A DNA stretch of 64,000 nucleotides, from assembly GCA_963748815.1 (NCBI GenBank), contig CAVVKJ010000010.1, positions 992,001-1,056,000 on the forward strand, given 5' to 3'. The DNA comes from an uncultured Gemmatimonadales bacterium. GTDB lineage: Bacteria > Gemmatimonadota > Gemmatimonadetes > Gemmatimonadales > GWC2-71-9. Position 1 is the first letter of the stretch. Every line of letters begins with the position of its first letter. A program made the translations under genes and the position numbers. The notes beneath the pieces are model-generated. The model was not told where the DNA came from, ran no database searches, and worked only from the letters and a program-made list of their open reading frames with translations. This document shows positions 1-23,233 of this stretch, piece after piece.

Positions 1-290
1 GCGGCGGGAGAACCCTGATCCTCGGCGCGAAGCGCCGAGAGCGCCTCCACCGTGTATTTCTGCTTCAGGAAGGCGTAGTCGCCGTCGCTGAGCTTGCCGG
101 TCTCCCGGTCGAACTCGATTTCCTTGAGCGCCGCGAGCGCGACCCCGCTCCGGGTGTCCTCAAGGTCCTCCAGCGCGTCGAGGTCGATGACATCCACCGG
201 CCGCGCGCCGTGCGCGGTAAACACCGGCTCGAACACCAGCCAGAGGAGCGACAGTCCCACGAAGGCGGCAGCCACCGCTTCGATCCACAT
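1..290 (-). CDS. CcmI/CycH N-terminal-like membrane protein (partial, runs off the window edge)
   Basis: Not in the ORF track. ATG at 290 overlaps the ccmH stop (ATGA). Translation MWIEAVAAAFVGLSLLWLVFEP...ALAALKEIEFDRETGKLSDGDYAFLKQKY has a TM helix plus the 'E.E.D...G.L...Y...K' pattern of CcmI N-termini. Confidence 0.6.
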   Translation of the reverse strand, partial: MWIEAVAAAFVGLSLLWLVFEPVFTAHGARPVDVIDLDALEDLEDTRSGVALAALKEIEFDRETGKLSDGDYAFLKQKYTVEALSALRAEDQGSPA

Positions 291-916
291 CAGTCCTTCA
301 CCTCGGAGAGGGCGCGCTGCAGGCGCTCGAGCTCCTCGGACGTGGCGCCCGAGACGGCGGCGATGTCGATCGCCTCCGTGGGGGCCAGCGAAGGCACCGC
401 GGCAATCTGGCGCTGGCGCCGCAGGATCCACATCGAGAGGATGCCGATGCCGGCCAGCATCAGGAGACCGGGAACGAAGTACCCGGCCAGGTTGAACCCT
501 TCCGCCTTCGGCGCCATGAGCGCCTGCTCGCCGTACTCGCTGACGAAGGCCTCGCGGATCTGGTCCGCGGTCCGGTTGTCGTCCCAGAGGGCCACGATCT
601 CGCGATGGAGCGCCGGGGAGGTGGTGCAGGTGAAGTCGGTGGTCCGGCAGGTGTAGATGTCGAGGTTGCACCCGCACTGGCACTTGAGGGTCTTCTCGAG
701 TTCCATGATCTGGGCGTCGTTGTCGGCGCCGACGGTCGGGGTGCGCTGCTGGACCGCGTTGGGGTTGTAGAGCCGCCCCGCGTCGCCGCTGCCCGGGGCT
801 CCCTGCGCCGCATCCTGCGCGCGAAGCGCCCCCGCCCCAGCGAGCGCGAGCCCGCCGAGCGCCACCTGCCGGAGAAAGTCCCGCCGTTCGCTGCCAGGCG
901 TCGTCATCTCAGGCAT
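290..916 (-). CDS. ccmH: Cytochrome c biogenesis protein CcmH/CcmL family, atypical Cys motif, twin-arginine signal
   Basis: LEKTLKCQCGC...IREAFVSEYGEQALMAP followed by a TM helix; directly downstream of ccmF; N-terminal ERRDFLR. Confidence 0.8.
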   Translation of the reverse strand: MPEMTTPGSERRDFLRQVALGGLALAGAGALRAQDAAQGAPGSGDAGRLYNPNAVQQRTPTVGADNDAQIMELEKTLKCQCGCNLDIYTCRTTDFTCTTSPALHREIVALWDDNRTADQIREAFVSEYGEQALMAPKAEGFNLAGYFVPGLLMLAGIGILSMWILRRQRQIAAVPSLAPTEAIDIAAVSGATSEELERLQRALSEVKD

Positions 917-2939
917 TCTCCGCGCCCACGAGGGTCGCCTCGTAGCCGGCCTGGGTGCGCCGGGTCTCGGCGATCCCGCCGCCGCCGGGCCACATGGTCA
1001 GGATGCCGCCGACCACCAGCACCATCCCGGCAAACCAGACCCACCAGACCAGCGGATTGATGGTGAAGCGGTACACCGCCTCTTCCGTCCCGTTGACCGA
1101 GCCGGCATAGACGATATAGAGGTCCTCCCGCAGGTCGCTCCGGATGCCGACTTCGGTGGACGGCTCGAAGGTGGGGCGGCCGAAGCTGTCCACGTGCTGG
1201 CGCTTTTCGGACTTCATGACGCCGAGCGACTTGCCGTTGTAGTCGACCTGGACGGTGGCGGCCGACACCACGCGATTGAGGGCGTTGTACTGGGACACCC
1301 CGAGGTGGGTCAGCTTGTAGGTGCCGCCGTAGGGGCTCTGCATCTCGATCGATTCACCGGGCTTCAGCGTGGCTTCCTGGTCGACCCGGAAGGCCATCCC
1401 GGTGAAGGCGATGAACATCAGCAGGATGCCGACGTGCACGATGTAGCCGCCGTACCGGCGCCGGTTGCGGGCGATCAGGTTGAAGAAGGCGGTCGGGATC
1501 GACTCGCCGTGCATCCGGCGGCGGGCCCGGATGCCGCGGTAGAACTCCTGCACCACCGTCCCCATGACGAACGCGCCCAGGGCGACGGTCATGATCGGAT
1601 AGACGTCCCGCATGCCGTCGACGACCAGCGCGAGCGCCGTCACCAGCCCCACCGACACCGGGAAGATGAATTGCCGCTGCAGGTTCCGGGCGGACGCCTT
1701 GCGCCACGCGATCAACGGGCCGATGCCGGTGAGCGCCAGCAGGAAGAGCCCCAGCGGAATATTGACCCGGTTGAAGAAGGGGGGACCCACCGTGATCTTG
1801 GTGCCCCGCACCGCTTCCGAGAGGATCGGGAAGAGCGTGCCCCAGAGCACCGAGAAGGCGATGCCGACCAGCGCCAGGTTGTTGAAGAGGAACGCCGCCT
1901 CGCGGCTCAGCATCGACTCCAGCTTGGCGTCGGGCTCGAGCTCGTCCCACCGGGTGTAGAGCATCGTGAAGCTGAGGACGCCGGCCACCAGCAGGAACGC
2001 GAGGAAGAAGTAGCCGACGTTGGATTGCGTGAAGCTGTGCACGCTGGCAATGACGCCGGACCGGGTGATGAAGGTGCCGAAAATGCTGAGGAGGAAGGTC
2101 GCCACGATGAGCGAAAGGTTCCACCGCTTGAGCATGCCCCGCTTTTCCTGGATCATCACGGAATGCAGGAACGCCGTCATCGTCAGCCACGGCAAGAAGC
2201 TGGCGTTTTCGACCGGGTCCCACGCCCAGTAGCCGCCCCAGCCGAGCTCGACGTACGCCCACCACATGCCGAGGACGATGCCGATCGACAGGAAGACCCA
2301 CGAGACGAGGGTCCACTTCCGGATGGCGACGATCCACCCGCTGTCCAGCCGGCGCCGCAGGAGCGCGGCGATGGCGAACGCGAACGGAATGGTGACGCTG
2401 ATGTACCCGAGATAGAGCATCGGCGGGTGCATGACCATGCCGATGTTCTGGAGCTGCGGGTTGAGCCCGCGGCCGTCCTCGGGAATGAACGCCAGCCGCT
2501 CGAACGGGTTGGCGGCAAAGAGCATCACGATGACGAAGAACACCACCACGATGTTGGTGACGCCCGCCACGTAGGGGAGCAGGTCGGCGTAGCGACGCGA
2601 GGTGATCCACTGGGCCACGGCGGAGAACGACGCCAGCACGACCGCCCAGAAGAGGAGCGACCCCTTCTGCCCGGCCCAGAAGGCCGACACGATGTAATAG
2701 GTGGGCAGGTTCCGGGAAGTGTAGGCCGCCACGTACTCGATGTTGAAGTCGTGGGCGAAGAGTCCCTTCCACAGCGACAGCGCCGCCACCAGGAGCGCGG
2801 CCGCGAGCGCGTAGGACGACCGGATGACGGTCCGTTCAAGGTCGGGGCGGTCCTGCCACTTGCCCGAAAAGGAGAGGACCGCGCCGAAGGTACCGATCAG
2901 GAATGCGACCCACAGCGAGAATTGCCCGAGGAGTGTCAT
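909..2939 (-). CDS. ccmF: Heme lyase CcmF/NrfE family
   Basis: WGGYWAWDPVENASF (WWD motif), GLNPQLQ..MVMHPP, ITRSGVIASVHSF, many TM helices; 676 aa. Confidence 0.97.
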   Translation of the reverse strand: MTLLGQFSLWVAFLIGTFGAVLSFSGKWQDRPDLERTVIRSSYALAAALLVAALSLWKGLFAHDFNIEYVAAYTSRNLPTYYIVSAFWAGQKGSLLFWAVVLASFSAVAQWITSRRYADLLPYVAGVTNIVVVFFVIVMLFAANPFERLAFIPEDGRGLNPQLQNIGMVMHPPMLYLGYISVTIPFAFAIAALLRRRLDSGWIVAIRKWTLVSWVFLSIGIVLGMWWAYVELGWGGYWAWDPVENASFLPWLTMTAFLHSVMIQEKRGMLKRWNLSLIVATFLLSIFGTFITRSGVIASVHSFTQSNVGYFFLAFLLVAGVLSFTMLYTRWDELEPDAKLESMLSREAAFLFNNLALVGIAFSVLWGTLFPILSEAVRGTKITVGPPFFNRVNIPLGLFLLALTGIGPLIAWRKASARNLQRQFIFPVSVGLVTALALVVDGMRDVYPIMTVALGAFVMGTVVQEFYRGIRARRRMHGESIPTAFFNLIARNRRRYGGYIVHVGILLMFIAFTGMAFRVDQEATLKPGESIEMQSPYGGTYKLTHLGVSQYNALNRVVSAATVQVDYNGKSLGVMKSEKRQHVDSFGRPTFEPSTEVGIRSDLREDLYIVYAGSVNGTEEAVYRFTINPLVWWVWFAGMVLVVGGILTMWPGGGGIAETRRTQAGYEATLVGAENA

Positions 2940-2945
2940 CGGGCG

Positions 2946-3365
2946 TCAGGCTGCGGGTGCTTCAGGCGTGGCCTCATAGCGCGAACCGCACTTGGCCAGC
3001 ACGTCGGTGGCGTGGAACACGCCATCGGCGCCGAGACGTCCCTCGACCACCACTTCGATGTCACTGGCGTCGGTGAAGGTGTCCGGCACGAGGCCCCGGT
3101 AGGTCACCGGGTAGACCTGCGTGCCGTCGGTCACCTGGAAGTCCACCGTCTGGGTGGCGGCGTCGCGCACGACCGACCCCGGCACCACGCGGGCGCCCAT
3201 CTTTACGCCGACGTTGTGGAAGGTGGGATCCGCGGAGGCCTTGGAGGCCAGCTCCGTCGGGGTGAGGAAGTAGACGCCCGTCTCCTTGACCCCCTGGAAC
3301 ATCAGGAGCCCGACGCTGCCGACGATCAGCACGGCGCCGAAGAGGAACTTGTGGCCAGGCTTCAT
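2946..3365 (-). CDS. ccmE: Heme chaperone CcmE, CxxxY variant
   Basis: N-terminal TM, YFLTPTEL, Y.G.VPDTF, VVEG, and LAKCGSRY in place of LAKHDExY. Start taken as ATG 3365. Confidence 0.93.
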   Translation of the reverse strand: MKPGHKFLFGAVLIVGSVGLLMFQGVKETGVYFLTPTELASKASADPTFHNVGVKMGARVVPGSVVRDAATQTVDFQVTDGTQVYPVTYRGLVPDTFTDASDIEVVVEGRLGADGVFHATDVLAKCGSRYEATPEAPAA

Positions 3366-3482
3366 GGTCCCGCTCCCTGCGAATAGTTGGATTCCGACTG
3401 GACTCCTCAACAATCGGCGGGCGGCCCCGCGGGAGCAAGCCCCGAACGGCCGCCTAAGGACTTCTTCACGCCGGCTTTACCC

Positions 3483-4286
3483 TCACTGCCCCGAGGTGGC
3501 CGCCTGCTGGAAATCGGTCATCATGCGCTCGTGGTCGCCGTACTCGGACCGCCCCTTCTTCATCTCTGCATCGTAATGTGACAGGAACGCCTTGTAGGCC
3601 TTCTGCAAGGCAGCATCGTCCTTGTTCCAGCGCGCCACCGTGCCCTGGATCACATACCCGAAGAGGTGCCCCGGATCCTTGGCCAGGAGGGTGTCGGCGA
3701 TGGCGCTCGCCCCGGCCACGTCGCCGCCGTGGAGCTTCAGGGTCGCGAGGTGAAACCGGGCGTCGGCATCGACCGCATCGAGCTGCTCGTAGGCCATCAG
3801 CGCCATCGGCGTGAAGGTCGTCACCGTCTGCTGGTCACCCGACTCCGAGGCCCGCATGATCCGGTTGTAGAGGGCGTCGAATCGTTGCCGCGGGGTCATG
3901 TTGCTGATGTCAGGCGGCGTGCCGCCGCCTGCCCCGCCCGCGAAGGGAGCCGCCGACCCACTCGCGCCGACCGCGCCGGCCGCCTCGGCGGGACCCTGAT
4001 TTCCCTTGACCACCAGCGCGAGGACCGCGACCAGGAGGACGGCCGAGATGGCAGCGGCCATCGCCCAGGCCTTCCGCTCCCCCTGAGGGCTCCCGGCGCC
4101 CCCGGCGCCCGCGCCGGCTCCCGGCACGCTCGGTGTCCCGCACTGGGTGCAGAACTTGGCGCCGGCGGCCAGCGGGGCCTGACAGGAGCTGCAGTTCCGC
4201 GGGCCGAGGCTGGCACCACAGTGACGACAGAACTTCCCTTCGGCATCGGCACCGCATGAGGGACAACGGGTGGTCTTGGAGGCCAT
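3483..4286 (-). CDS. Double zinc-ribbon membrane protein with C-terminal helical/TPR-like region
   Basis: CPSCG, CRHCG, CSSCQ, CTQCG; one TM helix; then a helical domain (ARFHLATLKL...LLAKDPGHLFG). Confidence 0.7.
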   Translation of the reverse strand: MASKTTRCPSCGADAEGKFCRHCGASLGPRNCSSCQAPLAAGAKFCTQCGTPSVPGAGAGAGGAGSPQGERKAWAMAAAISAVLLVAVLALVVKGNQGPAEAAGAVGASGSAAPFAGGAGGGTPPDISNMTPRQRFDALYNRIMRASESGDQQTVTTFTPMALMAYEQLDAVDADARFHLATLKLHGGDVAGASAIADTLLAKDPGHLFGYVIQGTVARWNKDDAALQKAYKAFLSHYDAEMKKGRSEYGDHERMMTDFQQAATSGQ

Positions 4287-4376
4287 CGGGCAGAATCCAT
4301 GGTATGAGGGTGGAAGGCGGTCGGCACCAATCTAGCCAGACCGCCGCAATTGCGGGACCGGAATACTACTGATGGG

Positions 4377-5436
4377 TCAGCAGATGCGGGGGAGCTGGTC
4401 TCCCGGCAGCATATCGACGATGCGGGTGCCCCCGAGCCCCGTCCGGAGGACCACCATCCCCGGGTGTTCGGCGACCGCCGTCCCGGCGATGACCGCCTGC
4501 GCGCCGAGCGGGTGGCTGCGGAGCGCCGTGAGGGCGGCGTCCGCCGCAGCCTGGCTCGACGAACGCCACGAGCACCCCCTCATTCGCCACGTACATCACG
4601 TCCAGGCCGAGGAGATCGCAGACCGAGGCGACCGGCCCGGGGACGGGGAGGACGCCGTCCTCCAGCACCACGCCGACCTTCGAGGCGGCGGCAATTTCAT
4701 TCAGGGCGCTGGCCAGTCCACCCCGGGTCGGATCGCGCAGCACGTGGACCGACGACCCCACCGACACGCGGAGCAACTCCACGAGCGGCAGGAGGGTGGC
4801 GGCATCGCTCTCGATGGCGGCCTCGAAGGCAATCCCCTCGCGGGCTGCCATGATTGCCGTACCATGCGAACCGATCGGCCCGCTTACGAGCACGGCGTCC
4901 CCGGCACGCGCGCGGTCGGGACCGGGCCGGAAGGAGGGGTGTAACGTTCCGATACCGGTCGTATTGATATAGAGCTGGTCGGCCTTGCCCCGTTCCACGA
5001 CCTTGGTGTCTCCCGACACCACCGGGACCCCTGCCGCCCCTGCCGCCGCGGCCATCGAGGCGAGCACCCGATCGAGGAGGGCAAGGTCGAGACCCTCTTC
5101 CAGCACGAAGCCGACCGTCAGGCAGACGGGCCTCGCCCCGACCATGGCGAGGTCGTTCAGGGTGCCATGCACCGACAACGATCCGATGTTGCCGCCGGGA
5201 AACTCGACCGGGCTCACCACGAACGTGTCCGTGGAGACGGCGACCTGCTGCCCGTTGAGGTTGAGGACCGCCGCGTCGCCCAGTTGCTCGAGGATCGGGT
5301 TGCGGAGGTGCGGAAGAAAGCGCTCCTGCAGCAGCGCCGCGCTGAGCTTGCCGCCGGAACCGTGCCCGAGCTGGACGCGGTCGGTGGCCACGATGGGCAC
5401 CGGACAGGCGGGACCGCTCCCGATGGTGATGGTCAT
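4377..5436 (-). CDS. hypE: Hydrogenase maturation protein HypE (+1 frameshift near 4551)
   Basis: LGHGSGGK, STDTFVV, SGDTKVV, RDPTRGG, YVANEG. The conserved C-terminus GDQLPRIC lies in the adjacent frame (4377..4583). Confidence 0.95.
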
Positions 5437-5437
5437 T

Positions 5438-6547
5438 TCATCCCCCCGGGGCAACGGCCGCCCGATGGCGTCCGAAATTGTAGTACGCGGCGCACGCCCC
5501 TTCCGAGGAGACCATCGGGGCCCCGAGGGGACGCTCTGGGGTGCAAAGTGTGCCGAACGCCGGACACTCGTACGGCTTCAGCGTGCCGCGAAGCACTTCG
5601 CCGGCCCGGCACTCCGCCGGCTCGTCCACCTCGATGTCCTCCAGCCCGAACCGCAGCTCGGCGTCGAAGTCCGAGAACTCGGGCCGCAGGACCAGCCCGC
5701 TCTTCGGGATGGTGCCGACGCCGCGCCATTTCCGGTCGGCCAGCTCGAAGACCTGGCGCACCAGGTCCTGCGCCGGCGGCGTCCCGATCCGGCGGACGGC
5801 GCGGACATACTGGTTCTCCACCTCGTGCCGCCCCTCCTCGAGCTGGCGCACCGCGAGGGCAATCCCTTCCAGGATGTCGACCGGCTCGAACCCGGTGACG
5901 ACGATCGGCACCTTGAACCGCGCGGCGATGGGCTCGTACTCCTTCCATCCCATCACGCTGCAGACGTGACCCGCCGCCAGGAAGCCCTGCACCCGGTTCT
6001 CGGGGGAATCGAGGATGGCCACCATCGCGGGGGGCACCGTCACGTGCGACACGAGCACGCTGAAGTTGGGCACCCCGAGCTCCTTCGCGCGGAACACCGC
6101 CATGGCGTTGGCCGGCGCCGTCGTCTCGAAGCCCACCGCGAAGAACACCACCTGCTTGTCGGGATGCTTGACGGCCAGCTCGAGGGCGTCGAGGGGGGAG
6201 TACACCACCCGCACATTCCCGCCCCGCGCCCGGACCTGCTGGAGATCGCACTCGCTGCCGGGGACGCGGAGCATGTCGCCGAAGGAGGTGAACAGCACGT
6301 CGGGCCGCGCCGCGAGGGTCAGCGCCTTGTCGATTTGCTCCAGCGACGTGACGCAGACCGGGCAGCCGGGGCCGTGAATCATCTCGACGGCCGGGGCGAG
6401 AATTTCATCGAGCCCCTGCTTGACGATGGTATGGGTCTGGCCGCCGCACACCTCCATCAGGACCCAGCGCCGCGTGGCGGAATCGAGAATCTGGCGGACG
6501 AGGGCCCGCGCCAGGGCGGGATCCCGGTACTCGTTGAGGTATCTCAT
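5438..6547 (-). CDS. hypD: Hydrogenase maturation protein HypD
   Basis: [37 protein letters not shown]. Confidence 0.98.
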
Positions 6548-6798
6548 GGCGCCGCTCCCAGCTCCCCCTCGAGGAGGCTCATCTCGCGGAGCATTTCGTA
6601 CGTCCGCTTCGCTTCCTCCTCGTCCACGCGGGAAATCGCGAAGCCGACATGAACCACCACGTAGTCCCCCGCCTTCACCTCATCGGCCACGTAGGCCAGG
6701 CAGACGTCGCGGCGCACGCCCCCGAAGTCCACGGTGCCCATCGGCAGGCCGCGATCGCCGCGGATGTCCACGATCTGTCCAGGTATGCCGAGACACAT
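6544..6798 (-). CDS. hypC: Hydrogenase maturation chaperone HypC
   Basis: MCLGIPG...[13 protein letters not shown]. Confidence 0.98.
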
Positions 6799-6824
6799 GG
6801 AACGCCTCCTTCAGGTTCAGTCGG

Positions 6825-9111
6825 TCAACGCGCCAGCCGGGCGGCAGCCACCGCGGCCTGTCCAAAGCTGATGCCACCATCATTGGGGCTGAGGCGTCGC
6901 GGCCAGAGCACCGTCATCCCGAATCCCTGCAGCCGGCCCACGAGGGAGGTCAGCAGCCGCGCGTTCTGGAAGGTACCGCCGCCCAGGGTGACGGTGCGGA
7001 TGCCACTCTCCTCTGACACTCGTCGGATCACTTCGGCGGCGGCCCACGCGACGCTGGCGTGAAAATCGGCCGCGAGGTCGGCGATGTCGTCGCCGCGCTG
7101 ACGCCGTGAGCCAAGCACCGCCAGGAGATGCAAAGGATCGATGACCCAGGCCCCCTCGTCGGAGCGCTCCAGTCCCACCCGGATTTCGGAGGCGACCCGC
7201 CGCCCGGCGAGCGATTCAAGTTCCATCGCGGCCTGCCCCTCGTAGTCCGCCTTGAGGCGCAGCCCGAGCACGGCGGCCGCCGCATCGAAGAGCCGGCCCA
7301 TCGACGAGGCCCACGGCGCGTTGACGCCGCGGGTCGCCTGCAGCTCAGCCACCGCGCGTTCCGCCTCCTGGATGCCGTCGAGCGCCAGGGTGAACGCCGG
7401 CCCGAGGTGCGGATCGAGCATCAGGTAGCCGAGGGCGGCGCGCCAGGGGTTGCGGGCCGCGAGGTCGCCGCCCGGAAGCGGGGCAGGGCGCAGGTGGCCG
7501 ACGCGACGGAAGCCGAGCAGGTCGGCCTGCAGCACTTCCCCGCCCCAGACACCGCCATCGGCCCCGTAGCCCACGCCGTCGAAGGCGAGCGCGAGGACCG
7601 GGTCGGTGCGTCCGTGCTCCGCCATGACGGCGGCGGCGTGCGCGTGGTGGTGCTGGACCGGTTCGAGGACCCGAAGTCCCATTTCCTGCGCAATGCGGGT
7701 CGAGAAATATCCCGGATGCAGATCGTGGACGACGGCCTCGGGCGCCAGGCGGAAGAGCGCCTGGAACCGGGCGAGCGCCGACCGAAAGTGTTCGAGCGTC
7801 TCCAGGTTCTCGAGATCGCCGATGTGCTGACTGACCCAGGCCCGCGAGCCGTGCACGAGGGTGAAGGTGTTCTTCAGGTGCGGCCCGACCGCCAGGAACG
7901 GCAACGGGCTCGCGACCGGCAGGTCGAGGGGGAGGGGCGCGTACCCGCGCGCACGCCGCAACAGGATCGGGCCGATCTCGGTGGACCGCACGACCGAATC
8001 GTCGTACCGGGCCACGATCTCGCGGTCGTGGAGGAGAAAGCCGTCGGCGATCCCCTCCAGCCGGGCCAGCGCCTCCGCATTGCCGGTGGCGATCGGTTCC
8101 TCGCTCACGTTGCCGCTGGTCATCACGAGCGGGCGCCGCACCCGGTCGAGGAGGAGGTTATGCAGCGGCGTGGTCGGGAGCATGACGCCCACCCACGCGA
8201 GCCCGGGGGCGACGCCCTCTGCCAGCGGATCCCGATCGCCCCGCTCGAGGAGGACGATCGGACGCCTGGGTGAACGGAGCAGGATCGCCTCGTCCCGGCC
8301 CACGACCCCGAGCTTCCCCGCCTCGTCCAGCGTTCGGACCATGACGGCGAGCGGCTTCGCCTCGCGCCGCTTCCGCCGCCGGAGCTGGGCCACCGCCGAG
8401 CTGTTGGTGGCATCCACCGCGAGCTGGAAGCCGCCGACGCCCTTCAGCGCGACGACACCGCCCTTGAACAGTGTCAGCGCCGCCGCGGAGAGCGCCTCCT
8501 CCGACCCGGCGGTGTGGGAAACCCCGTCCGATTGGGCGTACCAGAGGCGCGGACCGCAGGCGGGGCAGCTGTTCGTCTCCGAGTGGTGCCGCCGGTCGCC
8601 GGGCGAGTCGTACTCGCGCTGGCAGGCGGCGCACTGCGTGAAGGCCGCCATGCTGGTGCGCGCACGATCGTACGGCATCGATTCGATGACGGTGAAGCGC
8701 GGGCCGCAGTCGGTGCAGGTGATGAACGGGTAGCCGTACCGGCGGTCGGCCGGATCCTTCAATTCTGCCTCGCAGGCCGCGCAGACCGCCACGTCGGGCG
8801 AGACCGGCTGCCGGCGGTCGGGCTGGTCCCGGCTGACCTCGATCGAAAACCCCGAGCAGCCCGTCACGGCGCGTGGCTCGACCGCGATCCGTTCGATCTG
8901 CGCGAGAGGTGGCGCCTCGAGCTCGAGCGCGGCCAGGAACTCCTGCAGCGCACCGGGAGCACCCTCGACCTCGATCAGAACTTCCCCGGAGGCGTTGAGG
9001 ACCCAGCCGTCGAGTTGGTGGCGCACGGCCAGCCGATGCACAAAGGGGCGGAAACCCACCCCCTGTACAACGCCAGTGACTCGGACGCGCGCGCCCCTCC
9101 CGGTCGTTCAG
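6825..9111 (-). CDS. hypF: Carbamoyltransferase HypF (probable CTG start with a +1 frameshift at 9094-9097)
   Basis: Acylphosphatase motif RVTGVVQGVGFRPFV, zinc fingers C..C/CTDCGPR, KGVGGF, QHHHAH, NDGGISFGQ. The motif extends upstream of the GTG at 9059. Confidence 0.95.
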
Positions 9112-14111: not shown

Positions 14112-14496
14112 CGTGTCGACCTCCGGTCCACTGGTGCGGGATGGACCGGCGGCGGGAGGAGCCCGCCGTCGGGGGGAATCCAACTGCCGCAACATCTGTG
14201 GCGGCCGATAAATGCGGTCTGAATAGTTTCTGAAGATGCGTTCAGTATTTCTACGTACTGACACGAAGGAGTTCCGGGCCCATCACCAGGAGTCGCCTCT
14301 TGAAGAGCTCATCAAAGTGGTCGCGTGGCGCTGCGGATCCGGTGATTGCCGTGCCCGAACCCAAGATTCTCCAAAGAGTTAGTGAAGGAACCATGAACTT
14401 TGTAACGAGACCCCCGTATTGCCACGGAGACCCATTGCGCGAAAGCCCGGATAGGGGAAAATTGCCTGCGTCCTCCCTCACTCAAGGGTCATTCTT
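14112..14496. promoter_or_regulatory. Divergent promoter region between the hydrogenase and multiheme cytochrome operons
   Basis: 385-bp region, visibly more AT-rich, between head-to-head operons; contains the near-palindrome TTGAAGAGCTCATCAA (14300-14315). Confidence 0.7.
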
Positions 14497-16180: not shown

Positions 16181-16184
16181 CCGC

Positions 16185-18185
16185 GTGATCGCCCAGACAC
16201 TGCACTCGCTCTATCCGACCATGGCTCCCGGCACCACGCCGGGAGCCATGGTCGATTCTTTGCAGGCCGCCCAGGCCGACAGCGGACTGGTGCCCACGCC
16301 GCTGCCGGACCCGGTGGTCAACCTGGTCCAGTGGATCTTCCAGCGCCCGGGCTGGGTCATGGTCTCGGGGATCGTGATTGGCGCCGTCGTCGGCGTCGTG
16401 GCCGCCTGGTTCCTCTGGAAGCACCGCAGGGACATCTGGACCTGGCTCGCCACCCGGAGCCGCGGCACCAAGCTCCTGATGGTCTCGACCGCGGGTGTGT
16501 TCCTCCTCGCCGCCGGCACGGTGGGCTACAAGGTCAACCACTACATGGAACACGACAACGACTTCTGTCGCGGTTGCCATGTGTTCATTCCGTACGGCCA
16601 GCCGTTCGTCCGGCCCGATACCGGCACCTACCTGATCGTCAACCAGCTCGAGGGGAAGCACGACACCCTCGAGTGCCACGACTGCCACCTCCCCGACAAG
16701 ATCGCCCAGGCGCAGGAGCTGATCCTGTGGATGGTGGACCGGCCCGACAAGGTGCCGGAACACGCCAAGGTGCCGCCCACGGTCTGCAAGAGCTGCCACG
16801 AATCGGGGGAGGCCAAGGAAACCTGGCAGGAAATCGTCACCACCGCAGGGCACCGGGTCCACTTCGAGTCTGATTCGCTGAAGGACAAGAATCTGGAGTG
16901 CCTGACTTGCCACGCGCGGTCGGCGCACCGCTTCGAACCGGTGGACTCCACCTGCGCCCAGCAGGGATGTCACCTGACCGACGAGGTGACCATCAAGCTC
17001 GGCAAGATGACCGACGCGGTGGGGCTCCACTGTGCCGTCTGCCACGAGTTCACCGCCGCAGTGCCCAGACTGGCCACTGTTGATTCAGCCTCCGGGACCC
17101 TGGTCCCCGGGGACAACCAGTGCTTCAGCTGCCACGAAATGCAGCAGCGGCTCCAGGACTTCGACCCGACGCATGACCCGCATAACGGGAAGTGCGGGAT
17201 GTGCCACAACCCGCACACCAACGTCCAGCCGGACGACGCCCTCAAGAGCTGCGCGACAGCCGCCTGCCACGGCGACTGGCGCAAGGTCGAGTTCCACACC
17301 GGGGCGGCGCACCGCAAGGGGATCGAGGACTGCGAAACGTGCCACACGCCGCATGCCGCACGGGTGGACGCCAGCGCCTGCGCCAGTTGCCACGAACGGG
17401 TGCGCGGATCGGCCACCGGAAAGGCGGCGGGACGAAAGCCTCCCCTGCCCTTCGACACCACCAAGGCGCTCCGGTCGAGTTCGGCGCAGCCAGACCCGAC
17501 CAGCCCCCACGGAAAGGGCGATGCGCCGCCGGATGACGACCCTCCGGCGGCGTTGGTCTCTCAGGCCCCCGCCGACAGCTTCGAGCACGCCCGGCACAAG
17601 GACCTGAGCTGCATCACCTGCCACACGACCTCCAACCCGACCTCGACCCTGAACTTTGCCGCGCCGCGCGGGTGCCAGATCTGTCATCACACCGCCACCG
17701 CGAAGCGCGATTGCGCCGTCTGTCACACCCCCGCCGAGCAGGGCCCCGAGACGGTGCGCGTCACGGTCACCGTGCCGGAACATGCCCCCCGGCCCCGGGA
17801 GGTGTCGTTCGAGCACGCCAAGCACACCGAGGTGGCGTGCAAGGAGTGCCACGCCACGCCGGTGACGCTCGCCCCCGAGGCGCCGGTCAAGGGGTGCATC
17901 TCCTGCCACGACCAGCACCACACCGAGGCGAAGGACTGCGCCGCCTGTCACGCCGGCGGCGACATCGACACCCCCCATGCGCCCCCCGCCGTCGCCCATG
18001 AAGGGTGCGACGCCTGTCATACTCCGGCGCGTATCGCGCAGCTGACGCCGTCGCGGCCGTTCTGCCTGACCTGCCACCAGCCGCAGCGAGCCGATCACTA
18101 CCCGACGAAGGAGTGCACGCCGTGCCACCTCGACGCGACGCCGGCCGAATGGCGGTCGCGACTGGTGGGTGGGAGGGGCATGTGA
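16185..18185 (+). CDS. Membrane-anchored 20-heme cytochrome with NapC/NirT-like N-terminal domain
   Basis: Two N-terminal hydrophobic helices, then YMEHDNDFCRGCH; 18 CxxCH plus 2 Cx4CH counted. Confidence 0.88.
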   Translation: MIAQTLHSLYPTMAPGTTPGAMVDSLQAAQADSGLVPTPLPDPVVNLVQWIFQRPGWVMVSGIVIGAVVGVVAAWFLWKHRRDIWTWLATRSRGTKLLMVSTAGVFLLAAGTVGYKVNHYMEHDNDFCRGCHVFIPYGQPFVRPDTGTYLIVNQLEGKHDTLECHDCHLPDKIAQAQELILWMVDRPDKVPEHAKVPPTVCKSCHESGEAKETWQEIVTTAGHRVHFESDSLKDKNLECLTCHARSAHRFEPVDSTCAQQGCHLTDEVTIKLGKMTDAVGLHCAVCHEFTAAVPRLATVDSASGTLVPGDNQCFSCHEMQQRLQDFDPTHDPHNGKCGMCHNPHTNVQPDDALKSCATAACHGDWRKVEFHTGAAHRKGIEDCETCHTPHAARVDASACASCHERVRGSATGKAAGRKPPLPFDTTKALRSSSAQPDPTSPHGKGDAPPDDDPPAALVSQAPADSFEHARHKDLSCITCHTTSNPTSTLNFAAPRGCQICHHTATAKRDCAVCHTPAEQGPETVRVTVTVPEHAPRPREVSFEHAKHTEVACKECHATPVTLAPEAPVKGCISCHDQHHTEAKDCAACHAGGDIDTPHAPPAVAHEGCDACHTPARIAQLTPSRPFCLTCHQPQRADHYPTKECTPCHLDATPAEWRSRLVGGRGM

Positions 18186-19672
18186 ACCTGCGGAGCGCCG
18201 CCGCCGCGGTCGTGCTGGTGGTTTTCCTCCCGGCCGCCGGTTCGGCCCAGGGCTACAACCTTCGCCTCACGGGCGGCATCCAGGGGGTGAGCTTCCGCGG
18301 CTACACCGCGGACAGCATCCCCATCGACAGCGTGGTCACCACCGGCAACGGAAGCCTCGAGACCCCCACCGGCTACGCCGTGTCCTGCACCTCGGGCGTG
18401 GCCTACTGCAACTACTGGGTCCCGGGTCCCATCAACACCACTGCCCCCGCCGTGGCGCAGGCCGCGCTGACGATGTGGGGCCTCGGCCTCCCCGGCCTGC
18501 GCGTGCAGGTCAACGGCTACGCCACCACCGACTTCAACACCGCCGCCTCCTGGCCGGGCACCTCGCCCAACTTCCAGCTCATCGAGGGCTACGCCGAATA
18601 CGCCGCCCCCGCCTGGACGCTCGTCGCCGGGCGCAAGCTCATTGCCGGGCGCCTGGGGGCGTACGGCTTCGACGGCGGGCAACTCACGGGACGGCTCCCG
18701 AGTGCCGGGCTGGCGCTCTCGGGCTATGTCGGCTGGGGGCTGGCGCAGGGCTCGAACCTCCTCTTCACCTCCAGCGAGGCGAATCCCCAGGAGGACTACC
18801 AGCCGGCGGAGAGCCCGATCGTTGCCGGCTTGATCGGCACCTGGAATTCGCCGCACGCTGAACTGAGCGCCGAATACCGGAGGGAAGTGGACCAGACCAC
18901 CGACTACTTCGGGTCCGAGCGGATCGCCGCGTCGGCGACCCTCCGACCCTACGGAAGCTGGAGTCTGGTCGGCGGCGCGATTTACGACATGGCCAGCGGG
19001 CTGTGGGGCAGCGCAGACGCCGCTCTCCGCTTCGCCACCCCCAAGCTTGGCGTGGTGGCCGGGTATCGGCGCTACGCCCCGTTCTATGAGCTCTGGACCG
19101 TCTGGGGCGCCTTCAGTCCCGTACCGTACAACGCCCTCTACGGGTCCGTGTCGTACCAGGCCACGAAGCGGCTCCAGCTCCGGCTCCGCGGGGAGACCTA
19201 CCAGTTCGAGGATTCCGAGACCCTGACGCCGCTGGTTTCCATCGGCGACTCGGGATGGCGGTATTCGCTCGGTGGGACCTACCAGATTTCGAACGCCTGG
19301 CAGGCCCAACTCGGGTATGAGAACGAGTTCGGCACCGGCGCCTCGTCGAGCGGCTGGGACGGCAACGTCACCTTCTCGCCCAACGGCAAGTACTCCATCA
19401 TGGTGTACGGGAATTCGCTGTCACGACCGCTGGAATACCGCTGGGACCAGTCGGTGGTCCTCGTGTACGGGATGCAGGCCTCCGTGGTGGCGCGGGACAA
19501 CGTGAGCGTCGCCTTCACGATGGCCCGGTACGATGAAAACCGGGAACGTCCCGACGCCGCATCGTTCGAGTGGGACCAGATCCGCTTCGGGGCCAAGGTC
19601 GTCATGACCTTCAGCTCGGCCGACCGGCTGCCCCTCCCCAAGGCCATCACCAACCGACCGGCGGGGTACTGA
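18182..19672 (+). CDS. Putative outer-membrane beta-barrel (porin of a porin-cytochrome complex)
   Basis: GTG 18182 overlaps the previous stop (GTGA); signal peptide ending AGSA-Q; amphipathic strands rich in Tyr/Trp/Gly; no heme motifs; 496 aa; lies between two cytochromes. Confidence 0.75.
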   Translation: MNLRSAAAAVVLVVFLPAAGSAQGYNLRLTGGIQGVSFRGYTADSIPIDSVVTTGNGSLETPTGYAVSCTSGVAYCNYWVPGPINTTAPAVAQAALTMWGLGLPGLRVQVNGYATTDFNTAASWPGTSPNFQLIEGYAEYAAPAWTLVAGRKLIAGRLGAYGFDGGQLTGRLPSAGLALSGYVGWGLAQGSNLLFTSSEANPQEDYQPAESPIVAGLIGTWNSPHAELSAEYRREVDQTTDYFGSERIAASATLRPYGSWSLVGGAIYDMASGLWGSADAALRFATPKLGVVAGYRRYAPFYELWTVWGAFSPVPYNALYGSVSYQATKRLQLRLRGETYQFEDSETLTPLVSIGDSGWRYSLGGTYQISNAWQAQLGYENEFGTGASSSGWDGNVTFSPNGKYSIMVYGNSLSRPLEYRWDQSVVLVYGMQASVVARDNVSVAFTMARYDENRERPDAASFEWDQIRFGAKVVMTFSSADRLPLPKAITNRPAGY

Positions 19673-19673
19673 A

Positions 19674-21113
19674 ATGCGTCGCGTACTCCTGCCCCTGATA
19701 CTGGCGCTCGCCGCGCTCTCGGCCCCCGCGGCCGCGCAGCAGGGTGACCATTTCGACCACCCGCAGCACGCCAAGGTCTTCCCGACCTGCACCGCCTGTC
19801 ATGCCGGCGCTCTCAATCCCTCCCGGCCGCTCCTCCCCTCCGGGCAATCGTGCGCCAGCTGCCACGACGGCACCATCGAGCGCCGGGTGGACTGGAAGGC
19901 GCCCGCGCCGACGGGAACCAACCTTCGATTCACGCACGCCGAGCACAGGCAGGAGGTGCTCGCCAAGGCAGGAGGCGACTCCACGCTCACCTGCCAGGCC
20001 TGCCACATTCCCGAGGGCAGCGCCTGGATGACGGTGGAGCCGGCGGTCATGCCGCAGTGCCTGGCCTGTCACGGCGTCAAGGCGGCGCACCTCGCCGCCC
20101 CCGACACCGCGTGCGCCACCTGCCACCTCACGCTGGCGCAGGCGACCACGCTGACCTCGGCGCAGGTGAAGGAGTTCCCGGCACCGCCGTCGCATGAGGC
20201 GGCCGGGTTCATGGGCGCCGACGGGCACGGCGCGCAGGCGCAGGCCGGCACCGGGCCGACGACCTACCTCGTGGCACCAAGCTGCGCCACCTGCCACGCG
20301 CAGGAGTTCTGCATTACCTGTCACGTGAACGCCCCGGAAACACCGACCATCCAGGCGCTGGCCCAGGACCCCCGATCGCTCGCCATTCCGGCGCGTCTCG
20401 AGGAACCCGCCACGCACGAGCAGCCCAATTTCGTGACGACCCACGGCAAGTCGGCGCGCAAGAGTGCCGCCGCCTGCCAGACCTGTCACACCCAGGAGAG
20501 CTGCCTCTCCTGTCACATCACGCCGCCGCGGTCGGTCGCCACGCTCTACGCGAGCGGTCCCGGTCGGGGGGCGGGCGCCCAGGTGGAGCGGAGCCGTCCG
20601 GCCAGCCACATGGCCGACTTCAGCACCATCCACTCGCCAGTGGCCAACAGCAACCCGCAGTCGTGCGAGGGGTGCCACGCGCGCCCGCAGTGCCTCGATT
20701 GCCATCGCGGGACGCCCGACCGCACGCCGCAGTACCACCCGCAGACCTTCCTCGAGCGGCATCCGGCGGCGGCGTACGCGCGCGAGACCAACTGCAGCGA
20801 CTGCCACAACCCCGGCGCCTTCTGCCAGACCTGTCACGTACAGTCGGGCCTCGGCAGCCCCAAGGGAGCGCTCCAGGCGGGCTACCATGACGCCTACCCG
20901 GCCTTCCTGCTCAACCACGGCCAGGCGGCCCGCCAGAGCCTCGAAAGCTGCACCTCGTGTCACGTCGAGAAGGACTGCCTGAGCTGCCACTCGGCGCTCT
21001 ACGGCCGCGGCTTCAACCCGCACGGCCCCGGGTTCGACCCCGAGCAGCTCCGCTCCAAGAACCCGCAGATGTGCACTGTATGTCACGGACAGCGGGTGCC
21101 GAGTTCGAAGTGA
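19674..21113 (+). CDS. Periplasmic 16-heme c-type cytochrome
   Basis: Sec signal ending AAA-Q; 16 CxxCH; repeated H...F...H...CxxCH-x4/5-CxxCH modules. Confidence 0.9.
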   Translation: MRRVLLPLILALAALSAPAAAQQGDHFDHPQHAKVFPTCTACHAGALNPSRPLLPSGQSCASCHDGTIERRVDWKAPAPTGTNLRFTHAEHRQEVLAKAGGDSTLTCQACHIPEGSAWMTVEPAVMPQCLACHGVKAAHLAAPDTACATCHLTLAQATTLTSAQVKEFPAPPSHEAAGFMGADGHGAQAQAGTGPTTYLVAPSCATCHAQEFCITCHVNAPETPTIQALAQDPRSLAIPARLEEPATHEQPNFVTTHGKSARKSAAACQTCHTQESCLSCHITPPRSVATLYASGPGRGAGAQVERSRPASHMADFSTIHSPVANSNPQSCEGCHARPQCLDCHRGTPDRTPQYHPQTFLERHPAAAYARETNCSDCHNPGAFCQTCHVQSGLGSPKGALQAGYHDAYPAFLLNHGQAARQSLESCTSCHVEKDCLSCHSALYGRGFNPHGPGFDPEQLRSKNPQMCTVCHGQRVPSSK

Positions 21114-21231: not shown

Positions 21232-21250
21232 GTTTGTCCGTCAGGACATG

Positions 21251-21703
21251 CTACTTGATCAGAATCTTGCTGGTGACCGCCGACGGCACCTTCGGCAGAT
21301 GCACGAGCAGCACTCCATCCTGATAGGTTGCCGTGACGTTCTCCGCCATTGCGGGCGCGGGAAGCCGGATCATGCGGTGGAACTCGCCCCACTCCCGCTC
21401 GGCGTGCAGGTAGCGCTCGGTCGGTTCCGCCCCCGGGAATTCACGGCGACCGCTCAGCGTCAGCAGGGTCCCGACCAGCGTGATGTCGAGATTTTCCCGG
21501 TGGGCGCCGGGCACGTCGAGGCGGACGAGGTACTCCGCGTCGGTCTCGAGCAGATCGAAGGGAGGGAGCCACGCCGCAGGCTCCGCCTCACGGGTCCGCA
21601 GCAGGGCCTCGGGGGCGAAGGTGTTGTGGAAAAGCCGGTCGAACACCTGGTCGATGTCGTTGCGCACCTTGGCCATGACGGGTGCGGCCTTCACGATTCT
21701 CAT
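21251..21703 (-). CDS. Hsp20/alpha-crystallin small heat shock protein
   Basis: P.FDLLET, DVPG, ER.WGEF.R.IRLP, ATYQDGVL.V.LPK; AGGAGG RBS before ATG 21703. Confidence 0.95.
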   Translation of the reverse strand: MRIVKAAPVMAKVRNDIDQVFDRLFHNTFAPEALLRTREAEPAAWLPPFDLLETDAEYLVRLDVPGAHRENLDITLVGTLLTLSGRREFPGAEPTERYLHAEREWGEFHRMIRLPAPAMAENVTATYQDGVLLVHLPKVPSAVTSKILIK

Positions 21704-21731
21704 GATTCCTCCTGATAGAGACCGTGCCACC

Positions 21732-21775
21732 ACGATAGCATCCCGGCGCTGAAGCCGGTGTGAAGCGGGGTTGAA
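21732..21775 (-). promoter_or_regulatory. Triple TTCA direct repeat (11-bp period) plus extended -10, upstream of the first Hsp20
   Basis: Minus strand TTCAAC-N5-TTCACA-N5-TTCAGC-N7-TGCTATCGT; same layout at 22721-22764. Confidence 0.65.
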
Positions 21776-21778
21776 ACC

Positions 21779-22690
21779 ATGGCCACGAAGTTCGCGCAGG
21801 GGTTCTGGCGGCTCGCCGATCCGAAGATTTCGCTCGCCTCCGCCGCCGGCATGCTGCTGGGAGCCTCCTCCGCGGCCGCTGCCGGACCGATCGCGATCGG
21901 CTGGCTCCTGCTCACGGTGCTGGGGATCTTCGCGGTGGAGGTGGCAAAGAACGCCTCTGGAGAAGTGTACGACTGGGACTCCGGCACCGACCTCAAGGTG
22001 CGGGACGAGGACCGCAGCCCATTCTCAGGGGGCAAGCGCGTGCTCGTGGACGAATTGCTCACGCGAGGCCAGACCTGGGGAATCGCCCTCGGCGGCTACC
22101 TGATCGGCGCGGCGGCGGGGCTGGTGATCGTGGGATGGAGGGAGCCCACGGTGCTCTGGTTCGGGATGGCGGGAATGGCCATCGCCTTCTGCTATCACGC
22201 CCCGCCCTTCCGATTCAGCTATCGCGGCCTCGGGGAACTCGCGGTGGCCATCAGCTACGGACCGCTGGTCTGCGTCGGTACCTACCTGGTGCAGCGCGGG
22301 GCAATGCCGATAGAAATCATCCTGCTTTCGCTCCCGCTCGGCATCCTGATCGCCGCTTTCCTCTGGATCAACGAGTTTCCTGACTACTCCGCCGATGCCC
22401 TCTCCGGCAAGCGTACGCTGGTGGTGCGCCTCGGCCGCGCCCGGGCCGCCCGGGGGTTTGCGTGGCTCGGCGTGACGGCCGCCCTGATCCTGGTGTTCCT
22501 GCCGGCCGCGGGCGTTCCAGCGACGGTCTGGCTCGGCGGCGTCGCCGCGCTGCGCTACATCCCGGCCGCACGGATCCTGCTGGCCACTCCGGAGGACACC
22601 TCCCGAGTTATTCCCGCCCAGGCGATGGCGCTGCAGGCCTTCCTGCTCTACGCCGCCGGCGCCTCGGTCGGGATGCTCATCGGGCGGTGA
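21779..22690 (+). CDS. menA: UbiA-family prenyltransferase, MenA-like (DHNA polyprenyltransferase)
   Basis: EVYDWDSGTD, FSGG, YRGLGE, INEFPDYSADALSGKRTLVVRLG; multiple TM helices. Confidence 0.8.
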   Translation: MATKFAQGFWRLADPKISLASAAGMLLGASSAAAAGPIAIGWLLLTVLGIFAVEVAKNASGEVYDWDSGTDLKVRDEDRSPFSGGKRVLVDELLTRGQTWGIALGGYLIGAAAGLVIVGWREPTVLWFGMAGMAIAFCYHAPPFRFSYRGLGELAVAISYGPLVCVGTYLVQRGAMPIEIILLSLPLGILIAAFLWINEFPDYSADALSGKRTLVVRLGRARAARGFAWLGVTAALILVFLPAAGVPATVWLGGVAALRYIPAARILLATPEDTSRVIPAQAMALQAFLLYAAGASVGMLIGR

Positions 22691-22720
22691 GCGTTGCCGC
22701 GCTCCACGAAGCAAGGAAAT

Positions 22721-22764
22721 TTCGCCGGCGGTTCACAGTCGTTTCACCCCCTGCGTGCCATCTT
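22721..22764 (+). promoter_or_regulatory. Triple TTCA direct repeat plus extended -10, upstream of the second Hsp20
   Basis: TTCGCC-N5-TTCACA-N5-TTCACC-N7-TGCCATCTT. Confidence 0.65.
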
Positions 22765-22792
22765 GGAGTCGCACCATTCACCAGGGGGCTTT

Positions 22793-23233
22793 ATGAAACT
22801 CGCCAAGCTCAACCCGATCCTCGGCAACGTGGAGAAGATCGATCGCCTGTTTGATCCCTTCCTCACGGGGCCGCTCTTCCCCGAACTCGCGACCAGGGGA
22901 TTCGAAGGCGCCTGGGTACCGACACTGGACCTCGCCGAGAACGACAAGGCGTACATGGTCCGGCTCGAAGTCCCGGGCATGCCGAAGGAAAACCTGGACG
23001 TGAAACTGACCGGTGAAGTGCTGACCATCACCGGCCATCGCGAGGCCGTCAAGGAAGTTCCCGGCGAGAACTTCCTGTACAGGGAGCGGGAGACCGGCAA
23101 GTTCGTCCGGACGATCCGCCTGCCGGCCGCCGTGATCGAGGGGAAGATCGAGGCGCACTACACCGACGGCGTGCTCAACGTGACGCTGCCGAAGGCCGCA
23201 CCGGAAGTGCGGAGCAAGATCACCATCAAGTAG
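22793..23233 (+). CDS. Hsp20/alpha-crystallin small heat shock protein
   Basis: WVPTLDLAEND, EVPGM, RERETGKFVRTIRLP, AHYTDGVLNVTLPK. Confidence 0.95.
   Translation: MKLAKLNPILGNVEKIDRLFDPFLTGPLFPELATRGFEGAWVPTLDLAENDKAYMVRLEVPGMPKENLDVKLTGEVLTITGHREAVKEVPGENFLYRERETGKFVRTIRLPAAVIEGKIEAHYTDGVLNVTLPKAAPEVRSKITIK

Follow-up and report, generated by a model that had tools for sequence, protein, structure and literature searches.

We describe here a respiratory gene neighbourhood in a stretch of 64,000 nucleotides from an uncultured Gemmatimonadales bacterium (GenBank assembly GCA_963748815.1, contig CAVVKJ010000010.1, positions 992,001 to 1,056,000), which is called the window below and in which an operon for a [NiFe] hydrogenase of the uptake type faces, head-to-head, an operon of four genes for a predicted porin-cytochrome conduit. 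Comparison with related genomes reveals that the linkage of hydrogenase and conduit is frequent, rebuilt in several forms and optional. The explanation which we put first, and to which we give about an even chance of being right, is that the hydrogenase and the four-gene set are connected in series by the menaquinone pool, with H2 driving the reduction of extracellular acceptors.

Soils, sediments and treatment plants harbour Gemmatimonadota in abundance, but few members are cultured, and the usual picture of the phylum is one of aerobic heterotrophs, phototrophs or N2O reducers. If the linkage is functional, H2-driven reduction of Fe, Mn or humics, or interspecies electron transfer, would join the roles of the phylum. 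H2-fuelled metal reduction in itself is well known, an example being Geobacter sulfurreducens with H2 and Fe(III) citrate (excerpt of PMC7894505), and an mtrABC-like cluster is mentioned in a Gemmatimonadetes bin in the available excerpt of PMC4411801; a description of the hydrogenase-conduit arrangement in Gemmatimonadota was not found in the literature searched, which did not extend to supplementary files. What is new here is the kinship of the outer cytochrome with OcwA and OmhA, the layouts with a V/A-type ATPase or in tandem, the rejection of menA as a member of the system and an indel in the window. The arrangement also yields clear enrichment conditions for the clade.

Two operons head-to-head

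The window lies on a contig of 1.18 Mb in a metagenome-assembled genome (MAG) of 3.16 Mb, 19 contigs and 86% completeness. Since the content of guanine plus cytosine (G+C) in the window is 66-73%, genes were chosen by third-position G+C, and they were named with Pfam and NCBIfam. On the minus strand the order is hydS, hydL, cytochrome b, a HyaD-type protease, hypABFCDE, a Zn-ribbon/TPR gene, ccmE, ccmF and ccmH; on the plus strand, from 14497, it is a nine-heme lipoprotein, a 20-heme protein, a predicted barrel of about 500 residues without a Pfam family and a 16-heme protein, which ends at 21113. That the hydrogenase-hyp and conduit operons stand head-to-head across 385 bp, as a preliminary description of this DNA had stated, is borne out, with the ATG of hydS at 14111 and that of the first cytochrome at 14497. 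The modules of the electron chain proposed there are likewise encoded, menA excepted, namely the uptake hydrogenase, the 20-heme and 16-heme proteins, the predicted barrel and the nine-heme lipoprotein. The features of the two operons are as follows.

4366..10116, minus strand: hypE, hypD, hypC, hypF, hypB and hypA (Pfam and NCBIfam; HypE TIGR02124 346 bits against 252; HypD 496 bits)
10013..10552, minus strand: HyaD/HybD-type maturation endopeptidase (PF01750; TIGR00072 124.5 bits against a cut-off of 47)
10509..11333, start probably ATG at about 11234, minus strand: Ni/Fe-hydrogenase b-type cytochrome subunit (TIGR02125 170 bits against a cut-off of 121.5)
11273..13084, start probably at about 12980, minus strand: [NiFe] hydrogenase large subunit, hydL (PF00374 767 bits)
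12975..14111, minus strand: [NiFe] hydrogenase small subunit, hydS (TIGR00391 441 bits against a cut-off of 179.5; twin-arginine translocation (Tat) signal SRREFLEF; C-terminal transmembrane anchor)
14112..14496, no strand: divergent intergenic region of 385 bp with a palindrome and a conserved block
14497..16180, plus strand: nine-heme lipoprotein, OcwA/OmhA-like (lipobox LAGC; two frames in the window, one extra base at 15620)
16185..18185, start perhaps ATG at 16248, plus strand: membrane-anchored 20-heme cytochrome, predicted quinol dehydrogenase (18 CXXCH and 2 CX3-4CH)
16216..16254, plus strand: hairpin with a 17-bp stem, terminator- or attenuator-like, directly past the nine-heme stop
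18149..19672, plus strand: predicted outer-membrane beta-barrel ('porin'), no Pfam family, about 500 residues (start overlaps the 20-heme stop; AlphaFold2 model)
19674..21113, plus strand: Sec-exported 16-heme cytochrome (16 CXXCH; signal peptide; Pfam MtrC/MtrF domain II/IV 50 bits against a cut-off of 30)

The Tat signal, the nickel-binding motifs and the cytochrome b model, which scores above its cut-off, give the enzyme the make-up of a periplasmic quinone-reducing uptake hydrogenase, an activity that these features would predict. Both nickel motifs are present in hydL (RICGVC at residue 92 and DPCMSCGVH at 580), which also bears the C-terminal extension for the protease. The proximal-cluster motif of hydS is ECTGC, of the standard type with four cysteines that belongs to oxygen-sensitive respiratory hydrogenases, and the six-cysteine proximal cluster (CTCC) of the O2-tolerant subgroup 1d was not found in hydS. 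The closest structure to hydL in the PDB is 3myr_B (E 3.4e-227), ahead of enzymes of the Hyd-1 and Hyd-5 types, and hydL stays below the equivalog cut-offs of Hyd-1 and Hyd-2 of Escherichia coli. We take 3MYR to be the hydrogenase of Allochromatium vinosum, an enzyme which pairs with Isp-type partners, whereas the hydrogenase here has a cytochrome b partner. With its Tat small subunit, HyaC-type cytochrome b, protease and full hyp set, it resembles the cytochrome b-linked uptake hydrogenases, for which HydABC of Wolinella serves as the functional model. In the 86%-complete genome hydL is the sole match to PF00374, i.e. the sole [NiFe] hydrogenase found. Within the hyp set, the HypA homologue (window 9760-10020) is short, with 86 residues, a form that occurs in relatives as well, and its match covers only the first 66 of the 112 positions of the Pfam model, thus the usual C-terminal zinc site of HypA seems to be absent.

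On the conduit side, the operon has the features of a porin-cytochrome system: the barrel gene is flanked by multiheme genes in conserved order, one of the cytochromes is periplasmic and one is a lipoprotein, and the Pfam model of MtrC/MtrF domain II/IV matches three of the conduit cytochromes. All 16 CXXCH motifs of the 16-heme protein are invariant across 65 sequences. The protein without a family is a predicted outer-membrane barrel: its AlphaFold2 model, built from 68 sequences, has a predicted local distance difference test score (pLDDT) of 81.2, a predicted template modelling score (pTM) of 0.73 and about 22-24 strands, and Foldseek retrieved outer-membrane barrels only. The likeness is generic, with MtrB at rank 14 and a query TM-score (TMq) of 0.42; the highest query TM-scores, about 0.4, are those of MtrB and of ushers, which are 24-strand barrels.

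The 20-heme protein begins with two transmembrane helices followed by FCRGCH, and its heme count is identical in 11 of 11 relatives. The preliminary description had invoked NapC/NirT domains, which exchange electrons with menaquinol; the membrane-anchored multiheme architecture stands, but the likeness to the family is weak (PF03264, E 2, 8.6 bits against a cut-off of 24.1). In a profile search of the PDB with its N-terminus, NrfH (2j7a_C) comes first at a weak E of 0.012, co-linear over the transmembrane helix and hemes 1-3, and in the protein-language-model resource Atlas the neighbour score is 0.90 at rank 6. The architecture would thus be compatible with a quinol dehydrogenase of the NapC/NirT/NrfH type, a role it does not by itself demonstrate.

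The outer cytochrome and its reading frame

The first gene of the conduit, which is read in two frames in the window, had been described as a surface cytochrome. It encodes a multiheme lipoprotein akin to cell-surface reductases, and the two-frame reading gives way to one gene of 560 residues and nine hemes. In the window, the first ORF (open reading frame) runs into an arginine-rich tail and the next ORF, in another frame, holds the CX4CH motif. One base at 15620 is absent in the contigs of two public runs of short reads, one of them being identical at 459 of 460 letters, and the read-through without this base is an ORF of 560 residues with 8 CXXCH and 1 CX4CH, which aligns end-to-end with a relative at 71% identity. 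In all relatives where the gene is not frame-broken (9 of 11 examined), both parts form a single ORF of about 560-600 residues. A pseudogene was therefore rejected for an indel of the assembly or the strain; the former is likely, because a gene for heme-copper oxidase subunit I in the same assembly (contig C10:962106-963319, about 30 kb before the window) is also split, over at least three frames. Similar frame breaks occur in close relatives with long contigs (L031, G016 and G054).

The 8 CXXCH and 1 CX4CH are invariant in the family (41 sequences), of which at least 90% keep the lipobox cysteine. A profile of these 41 intact members was searched against the PDB, and its two best matches are OmhA (6qvm_A, E 4.5e-17) and OcwA (6i5b_A, E 4.2e-14). 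The segments shared with OmhA and OcwA are co-linear and include the C-terminal GVHN helix; the best matched stretches span about 100-200 residues, and further short co-linear stretches score weakly. By these profile matches the nine-heme lipoprotein is homologous to OcwA and OmhA. According to the consulted part of 10.1101/2022.02.24.481543, 6qvm is OmhA of Carboxydothermus ferrireducens and 6i5b is OcwA of Thermincola potens, both cell-surface cytochromes of Gram-positive iron reducers, and for OcwA the excerpt of PMC6703420 reports the reduction of iron oxide, electron exchange with electrodes, and the reduction of nitrite and hydroxylamine in vitro.

The hairpin past the stop of this gene is found at the same place in nine relatives, its sequence differs in four other genera, and in L061 a T-run follows it. 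In view of this conserved position, the nine-heme gene may be partly uncoupled in transcription from the three genes downstream, and the hairpin may determine how much lipoprotein cytochrome is made relative to the remaining conduit proteins. It also suggests the ATG at 16248 as the start of the 20-heme gene.

Linkage in related genomes

Three samples were used. The family sample holds 60 genomes besides the one of the window, one per genus except for one from its own genus; the order sample holds 120 genomes of three families; and the locus survey covers the best 80 of 517 barrel-encoding stretches in species-representative genomes. In the family sample the barrel was found in 44 genomes, the hydrogenase in 29 and both in 28, so that the barrel accompanies the hydrogenase in 28 of 29 genomes, the exception being 82% complete, versus 16 of 31 genomes without hydrogenase. 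Fisher's test gives p = 8e-5 with kin counted as independent, which they are not, and it therefore overstates the co-occurrence. A homologue of the barrel occurs in 30 of 32 hydrogenase genomes of the order sample versus 37 of 88 without hydrogenase, and in 16 of the 30 the two lie within 25 kb on one contig.

The 28 genomes of the family sample that hold both fall into the following layouts.

Direct divergent layout, 6 of 28: G016, G054, G006, G015, G038 and G029 (G029 by coordinates)
V/A-type ATPase operon of about 9 kb between hydS and conduit, co-directional with the conduit, 5 of 28: G032, G020, G037, G040 and G009
Other layouts within 21 kb, 2 of 28: G017 and G057
No conduit gene within 7-11 kb upstream of hydS, or conduit 205 kb away, 7 of 28: G060, G028, G051, G022, G013, G039 and G034
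Contigs ending within 4 kb, 8 of 28: G058, G036, G004, G011, G012, G053, G030 and G045

In the order sample, the direct divergent layout also occurs in G161 (by coordinates) and in G138 of a second family. Three genomes of the second family (G078, G165 and G175) carry a tandem layout on one strand, in which cytochromes, barrel and 16-heme gene are followed after about 1 kb by hydS and the rest of its operon; since a possible ORF for a TPR lipoprotein stands on the opposite strand inside this gap in G078, one transcript is not implied. A convergent layout was seen in G164 and G057 (by coordinates). The preliminary description had proposed conservation of the arrangement as a check, and the neighbourhood does recur: it was found, in more than one layout, among genomes of the same genus, of other genera in the family and of a second family.

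As to what faces or precedes the conduit in the surveyed loci, it is hydS in 14, a Zn-ribbon-ccm operon in 10, a V/A-type ATPase operon in at least 7, an operon for a molybdopterin oxidoreductase in 4-5, and other genes in the rest. The hydrogenase stands just past the ATPase on the same contig in four of the five ATPase-type loci that were followed further. In a quick maximum-likelihood tree of 68 barrels, direct adjacency to the hydrogenase changes at least five times, and four of the changes are forced by well-supported branches. The several layouts, these changes and the genomes with conduit only are the grounds on which we call the linkage frequent, rebuilt and optional.

Some details of these neighbourhoods may be added. 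The V/A-type ATPase operon is complete, with subunits I, K, E, C, A, B and D (L114:1845-10523, L133:1766-10677, L023/L024, L026/L027, L115, L124 and L130), and the genome of the window has such an operon on another contig (C11:53361-61069). The divergent slot with the molybdopterin oxidoreductase is found in other genera (L051:3394-5904, L059:4362-5939, L065:1747-4560, L097:1062-5918 and L054:996-2156) and encodes a Tat-type molybdopterin oxidoreductase, a multiheme cytochrome and a 4Fe-4S protein, with an NrfD-like membrane protein too in L059; it is another quinone-linked module that replaces the hydrogenase at the conduit. In two loci of the second family (L134:14782-18116 and L135:14897-18218) there are two tandem OcwA-like paralogues with no 20-heme gene between them and the barrel, and hypC and hypD lie divergently upstream of the conduit.

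The intergenic region

The 385 bp between the operons hold two conserved elements. One is a palindrome, CTGAA-N6-TTCAG at 14230-14245, about -133 of hydS, which is kept in 11 of 11 loci with at least 88% identity in hydS and also precedes hydS of G036, whose contig ends too early for its linkage to be classed. The other is a block of about 60 bp, GTGAAG-N11-TTTGTAAC...CCGTATTGCCACGGAG...ATTGCGCGAA at 14382-14443 (in short, GTGAAG...TTTGTAAC...ATTGCG), some 100 bp ahead of the nine-heme gene; 12 of 14 loci where the hydrogenase faces the conduit directly have it, versus none of 39 other loci, and it occurs once in the genome. The upstream region of the conduit thus differs where the hydrogenase adjoins, which in itself does not show co-regulation. 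A promoter or a protein-binding site are the candidate natures of this block. Rfam gave no credible match on window 1-24000, nor at a loose threshold on the intergenic region, and with no compensatory pairs among 13 sequences either, a riboswitch is unsupported; a scan for sigma-70 promoters across these 385 bp returned no site.

An operator common to the two operons was considered and rejected, for the core TGAA-N6-TTCA stands before hydS only, occurs at about 12 places in the genome and is present at the unlinked hydrogenase of G060.

Proposed electron route and competing explanations

In the explanation put first, H2 would be oxidised in the periplasm and cytochrome b would reduce menaquinone, with a proton-motive force generated as in HydABC of Wolinella. 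The 20-heme protein would reoxidise menaquinol in the manner of NrfH or CymA, the 16-heme protein would sit in or under the barrel, as MtrA does in MtrB, and the nine-heme lipoprotein would be the outer terminal reductase for Fe or Mn oxides, humics, electrodes or partner cells. The cytochromes are served by ccmEFH together with the Zn-ribbon/TPR gene. Gene content and motifs, export signals, the barrel fold as a prediction, the homology of the outer cytochrome, and the co-occurrence and recurrent linkage of the modules are established by the sequences; what we infer comprises the quinone steps, how the complex assembles, which way electrons flow and that both modules are used together. The two modules meet only at the quinone pool, therefore each of them can work alone.

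Several observations weigh against a series connection. The conduit is commoner than the hydrogenase and lacks it in 16 of 44 genomes of the family sample and in 37 of 67 of the order sample, and it faces, besides the ccm (10 loci) and molybdopterin oxidoreductase (4-5) operons, citrate synthase and others. Among the genomes of the family sample whose layout is resolved, 7 of 20 are unlinked, and 8 more end at contig edges; of the ten genomes in which the ccm operon faces the conduit, an orthologous hydrogenase is present elsewhere in three, at a distance of 195 kb in one of these, and absent from seven. The statistical overstatement of the co-occurrence, the weakness of the matches behind the quinol dehydrogenase (Pfam E 2, NrfH E 0.012, Atlas 0.90) and the lack of a match of the barrel to the Pfam family MtrB_PioB, even at E up to 5, count in the same direction. 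So do the palindrome at a similar place before hydS of G060, where the hydrogenase is unlinked and shared regulation is therefore not shown, and the public sequencing runs matching the stretch, among which there is no RNA run. Finally, the genome has heme-copper oxidases, thus O2 is an alternative sink for the electrons of H2.

Many of these points would be accommodated by a respiratory neighbourhood without dedicated coupling, in which the hydrogenase feeds a common menaquinone pool for any acceptor (O2 by way of the heme-copper oxidases, or others), the conduit works mainly with organic donors, and proximity reflects a shared chromosomal history or the joint transfer of cassettes of energy metabolism. 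The conduits without hydrogenase, the varying slot that faces them (ccm, molybdopterin oxidoreductase, V/A-type ATPase, citrate synthase), the unlinked hydrogenases in the resolved and in the ccm-facing genomes, the oxidases of the genome and the housekeeping genes that flank the island are all in favour of it. However, nearly every genome with the hydrogenase also has the conduit (28 of 29 and 30 of 32), the linkage has been rebuilt in four layouts in two families, as is not expected from drift alone, and the small subunit is without the extra cysteines of O2-tolerant enzymes. This is the main rival, and we hold it possible, at about one chance in four.

A conduit that works inward is unlikely. 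Here electrons drawn from Fe(II), Mn(II) or reduced humics, from a cathode or from a partner cell would enter the quinone pool or the oxidases, and the hydrogenase would be a second lithotrophic input. The direction of electron flow is unreadable from sequence, the organism is a facultative aerobe as judged by the oxidases of its genome, the best-matching DNA runs are labelled as biofilter and activated-sludge metagenomes (labels only, and the top one is possibly the source sample), and homologous porin-cytochrome sets function in Fe(II) oxidisers (excerpt of PMC5566968). Against this, OcwA and OmhA, to which the surface cytochrome is closest among characterised proteins, are iron-oxide reductases; moreover, a conduit that takes up electrons would be a competitor of the uptake hydrogenase for one acceptor, the two would form no chain, and their tight linkage would then be harder to explain. 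More improbable still is a role of the nine-heme lipoprotein, in the periplasm or at the surface, as an enzyme that acts on soluble N- or S-oxyanions (nitrite, hydroxylamine, tetrathionate), with the set being a soluble-acceptor respiratory complex instead of a conduit that reduces minerals, for while its family lies within the NrfA/c554/HAO/MccA superfamily, its profile also matching c554, HAO and octaheme nitrite reductase (E 1.6e-5 to 2.3e-4), and while the activities of OcwA on nitrite and hydroxylamine (PMC6703420, in part) point the same way, the barrel of about 500 residues and the 16-heme periplasmic protein would be superfluous for soluble acceptors and the two best PDB matches of the profile are cell-surface members of the superfamily.

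Beyond the series connection of hydrogenase and conduit, a broader proposal is offered tentatively: the Gemmatimonadales may possess a modular lithotrophic unit of 'outside respiration' that joins the uptake hydrogenase and a V/A-type ATPase to a conduit ending in an OcwA-type nine-heme reductase. In it the co-transcribed ATPase would tune the ion-motive force of a respiration with low energy yield, and the 'Gram-positive' OcwA would have been recruited into a diderm conduit; one of the commonest phyla of soil and sludge could then live on H2 and pass the electrons to minerals, humics or partner cells. We think it doubtful as a whole.

Relation to known systems

The cluster can be set beside three known systems of extracellular electron transfer. 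In the porin-cytochrome complex (Pcc) OmaB-OmbB-OmcB of Geobacter the cytochromes have 8 and 12 hemes (PMC4282303 and PMC4245776, both in excerpt), against 16 and 9 here. In further difference from the Geobacter complex, the barrel here has no detectable sequence family, a gene for an inner-membrane 20-heme protein lies in the same operon, the outer cytochrome is OcwA-like, and the cluster is linked to the hydrogenase and, in relatives, to the V/A-type ATPase. MtrCAB of Shewanella (6R2Q) together with CymA offers a likeness in plan, judged here from genes and predictions: a large barrel, a periplasmic multiheme protein, a surface lipoprotein cytochrome and, upstream in the chain, a candidate quinol dehydrogenase with multiple hemes and a transmembrane anchor. 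The candidate here has 20 hemes, not the 4 of CymA, and the barrel model has about 22-24 strands and no MtrB_PioB match, as against MtrB with its 26 strands. With OcwA the outer protein shares nine heme motifs and the predicted outermost position in the chain; in contrast to OcwA and OmhA, it is a diderm lipoprotein encoded beside an outer-membrane barrel. An OcwA-type outer cytochrome in this place connects the Gram-positive and Gram-negative solutions to extracellular electron transfer.

Neighbouring genes

Four genes for cytochrome c maturation or predicted to take part in it follow the hyp genes.

290..916, minus strand: ccmH-like cytochrome c maturation gene (Pfam CcmH, E 8.7e-15)
909..2939, minus strand: ccmF, heme lyase of the CcmF/NrfE family (Pfam CcmF_C and Cytochrom_C_asm; TIGR00353 429 bits, under its cut-off of 569)
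2946..3413, minus strand: ccmE heme chaperone (Pfam CcmE, E 9.6e-27)
3483..4286, minus strand: gene for a protein with Zn-ribbon, one transmembrane helix and TPR-like part (Pfam DZR and Zn_ribbon; TPR weak)

The earlier statement that ccm genes lie downstream of hypE in the same direction is correct, except that they do not adjoin it, the Zn-ribbon/TPR gene standing between hypE and ccmE. In relatives this gene always precedes ccmE/F, and by analogy its product might be a CcmI-like apocytochrome chaperone. With ccmE, ccmF and ccmH at the locus and a ccmC-like gene on another contig (C5:310880, 156 bits, under the cut-off of 186), the genome has a System I Ccm set. The association of ccm with the hydrogenase does not hold up: since the Zn-ribbon-ccm operon faces the conduit in 10 loci where no hydrogenase adjoins, Zn-ribbon-ccmEFH belongs to the cytochromes rather than to the hydrogenase.

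Past the conduit lie two further genes.

21251..21733, minus strand: hsp20 gene, inside the 665-bp 'gap' after the 16-heme gene
21779..22690: UbiA-superfamily prenyltransferase gene (PF01040 alone passes its cut-off)

The latter had been presented as a menA-like gene about 670 bp past the conduit and as a member of the system. A UbiA-family gene does begin 665 bp after the 16-heme gene, but the gap is not empty and the identity as MenA fails, with NF004751, the best of the MenA models, at 105 bits against 264 and TIGR00751 at 70.5 against 102. It lies between two divergent hsp20 genes (window 21251-23233). Its place next to the conduit is limited to loci whose porin is at least 70% identical, the closest clade, and there an hsp20 gene always stands on either side of it; L049 and G017 lack it, and in L049 the hsp20 genes are directly adjacent. 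MenB was not found above cut-off in the 86%-complete genome (best 153 bits against 343), which has two genes of the MqnA/MqnD family, an MqnP-like UbiA gene (C5:465890) and, elsewhere, heme O synthase; menaquinone thus appears to be made via the futalosine route. Given the sub-cut-off scores, the hsp20 gene on the opposite strand in between, the limited synteny and the Mqn genes elsewhere, menA is removed from the electron chain, and the UbiA-like gene is a bystander.

From 27 to 64 kb the window consists of housekeeping genes (recF, dciA, gyrB, ligA and others). A mobile island was considered and rejected, as the flanks are housekeeping genes syntenic in relatives and composition is even across the window; the locus is part of the chromosomal backbone. 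After the island, window 26671-31946 holds recF, dciA, a pair of extracytoplasmic function (ECF) sigma and anti-sigma factors, and gyrB, and the presence of recF, dciA and gyrB downstream suggests an origin-proximal position of the island on the chromosome.

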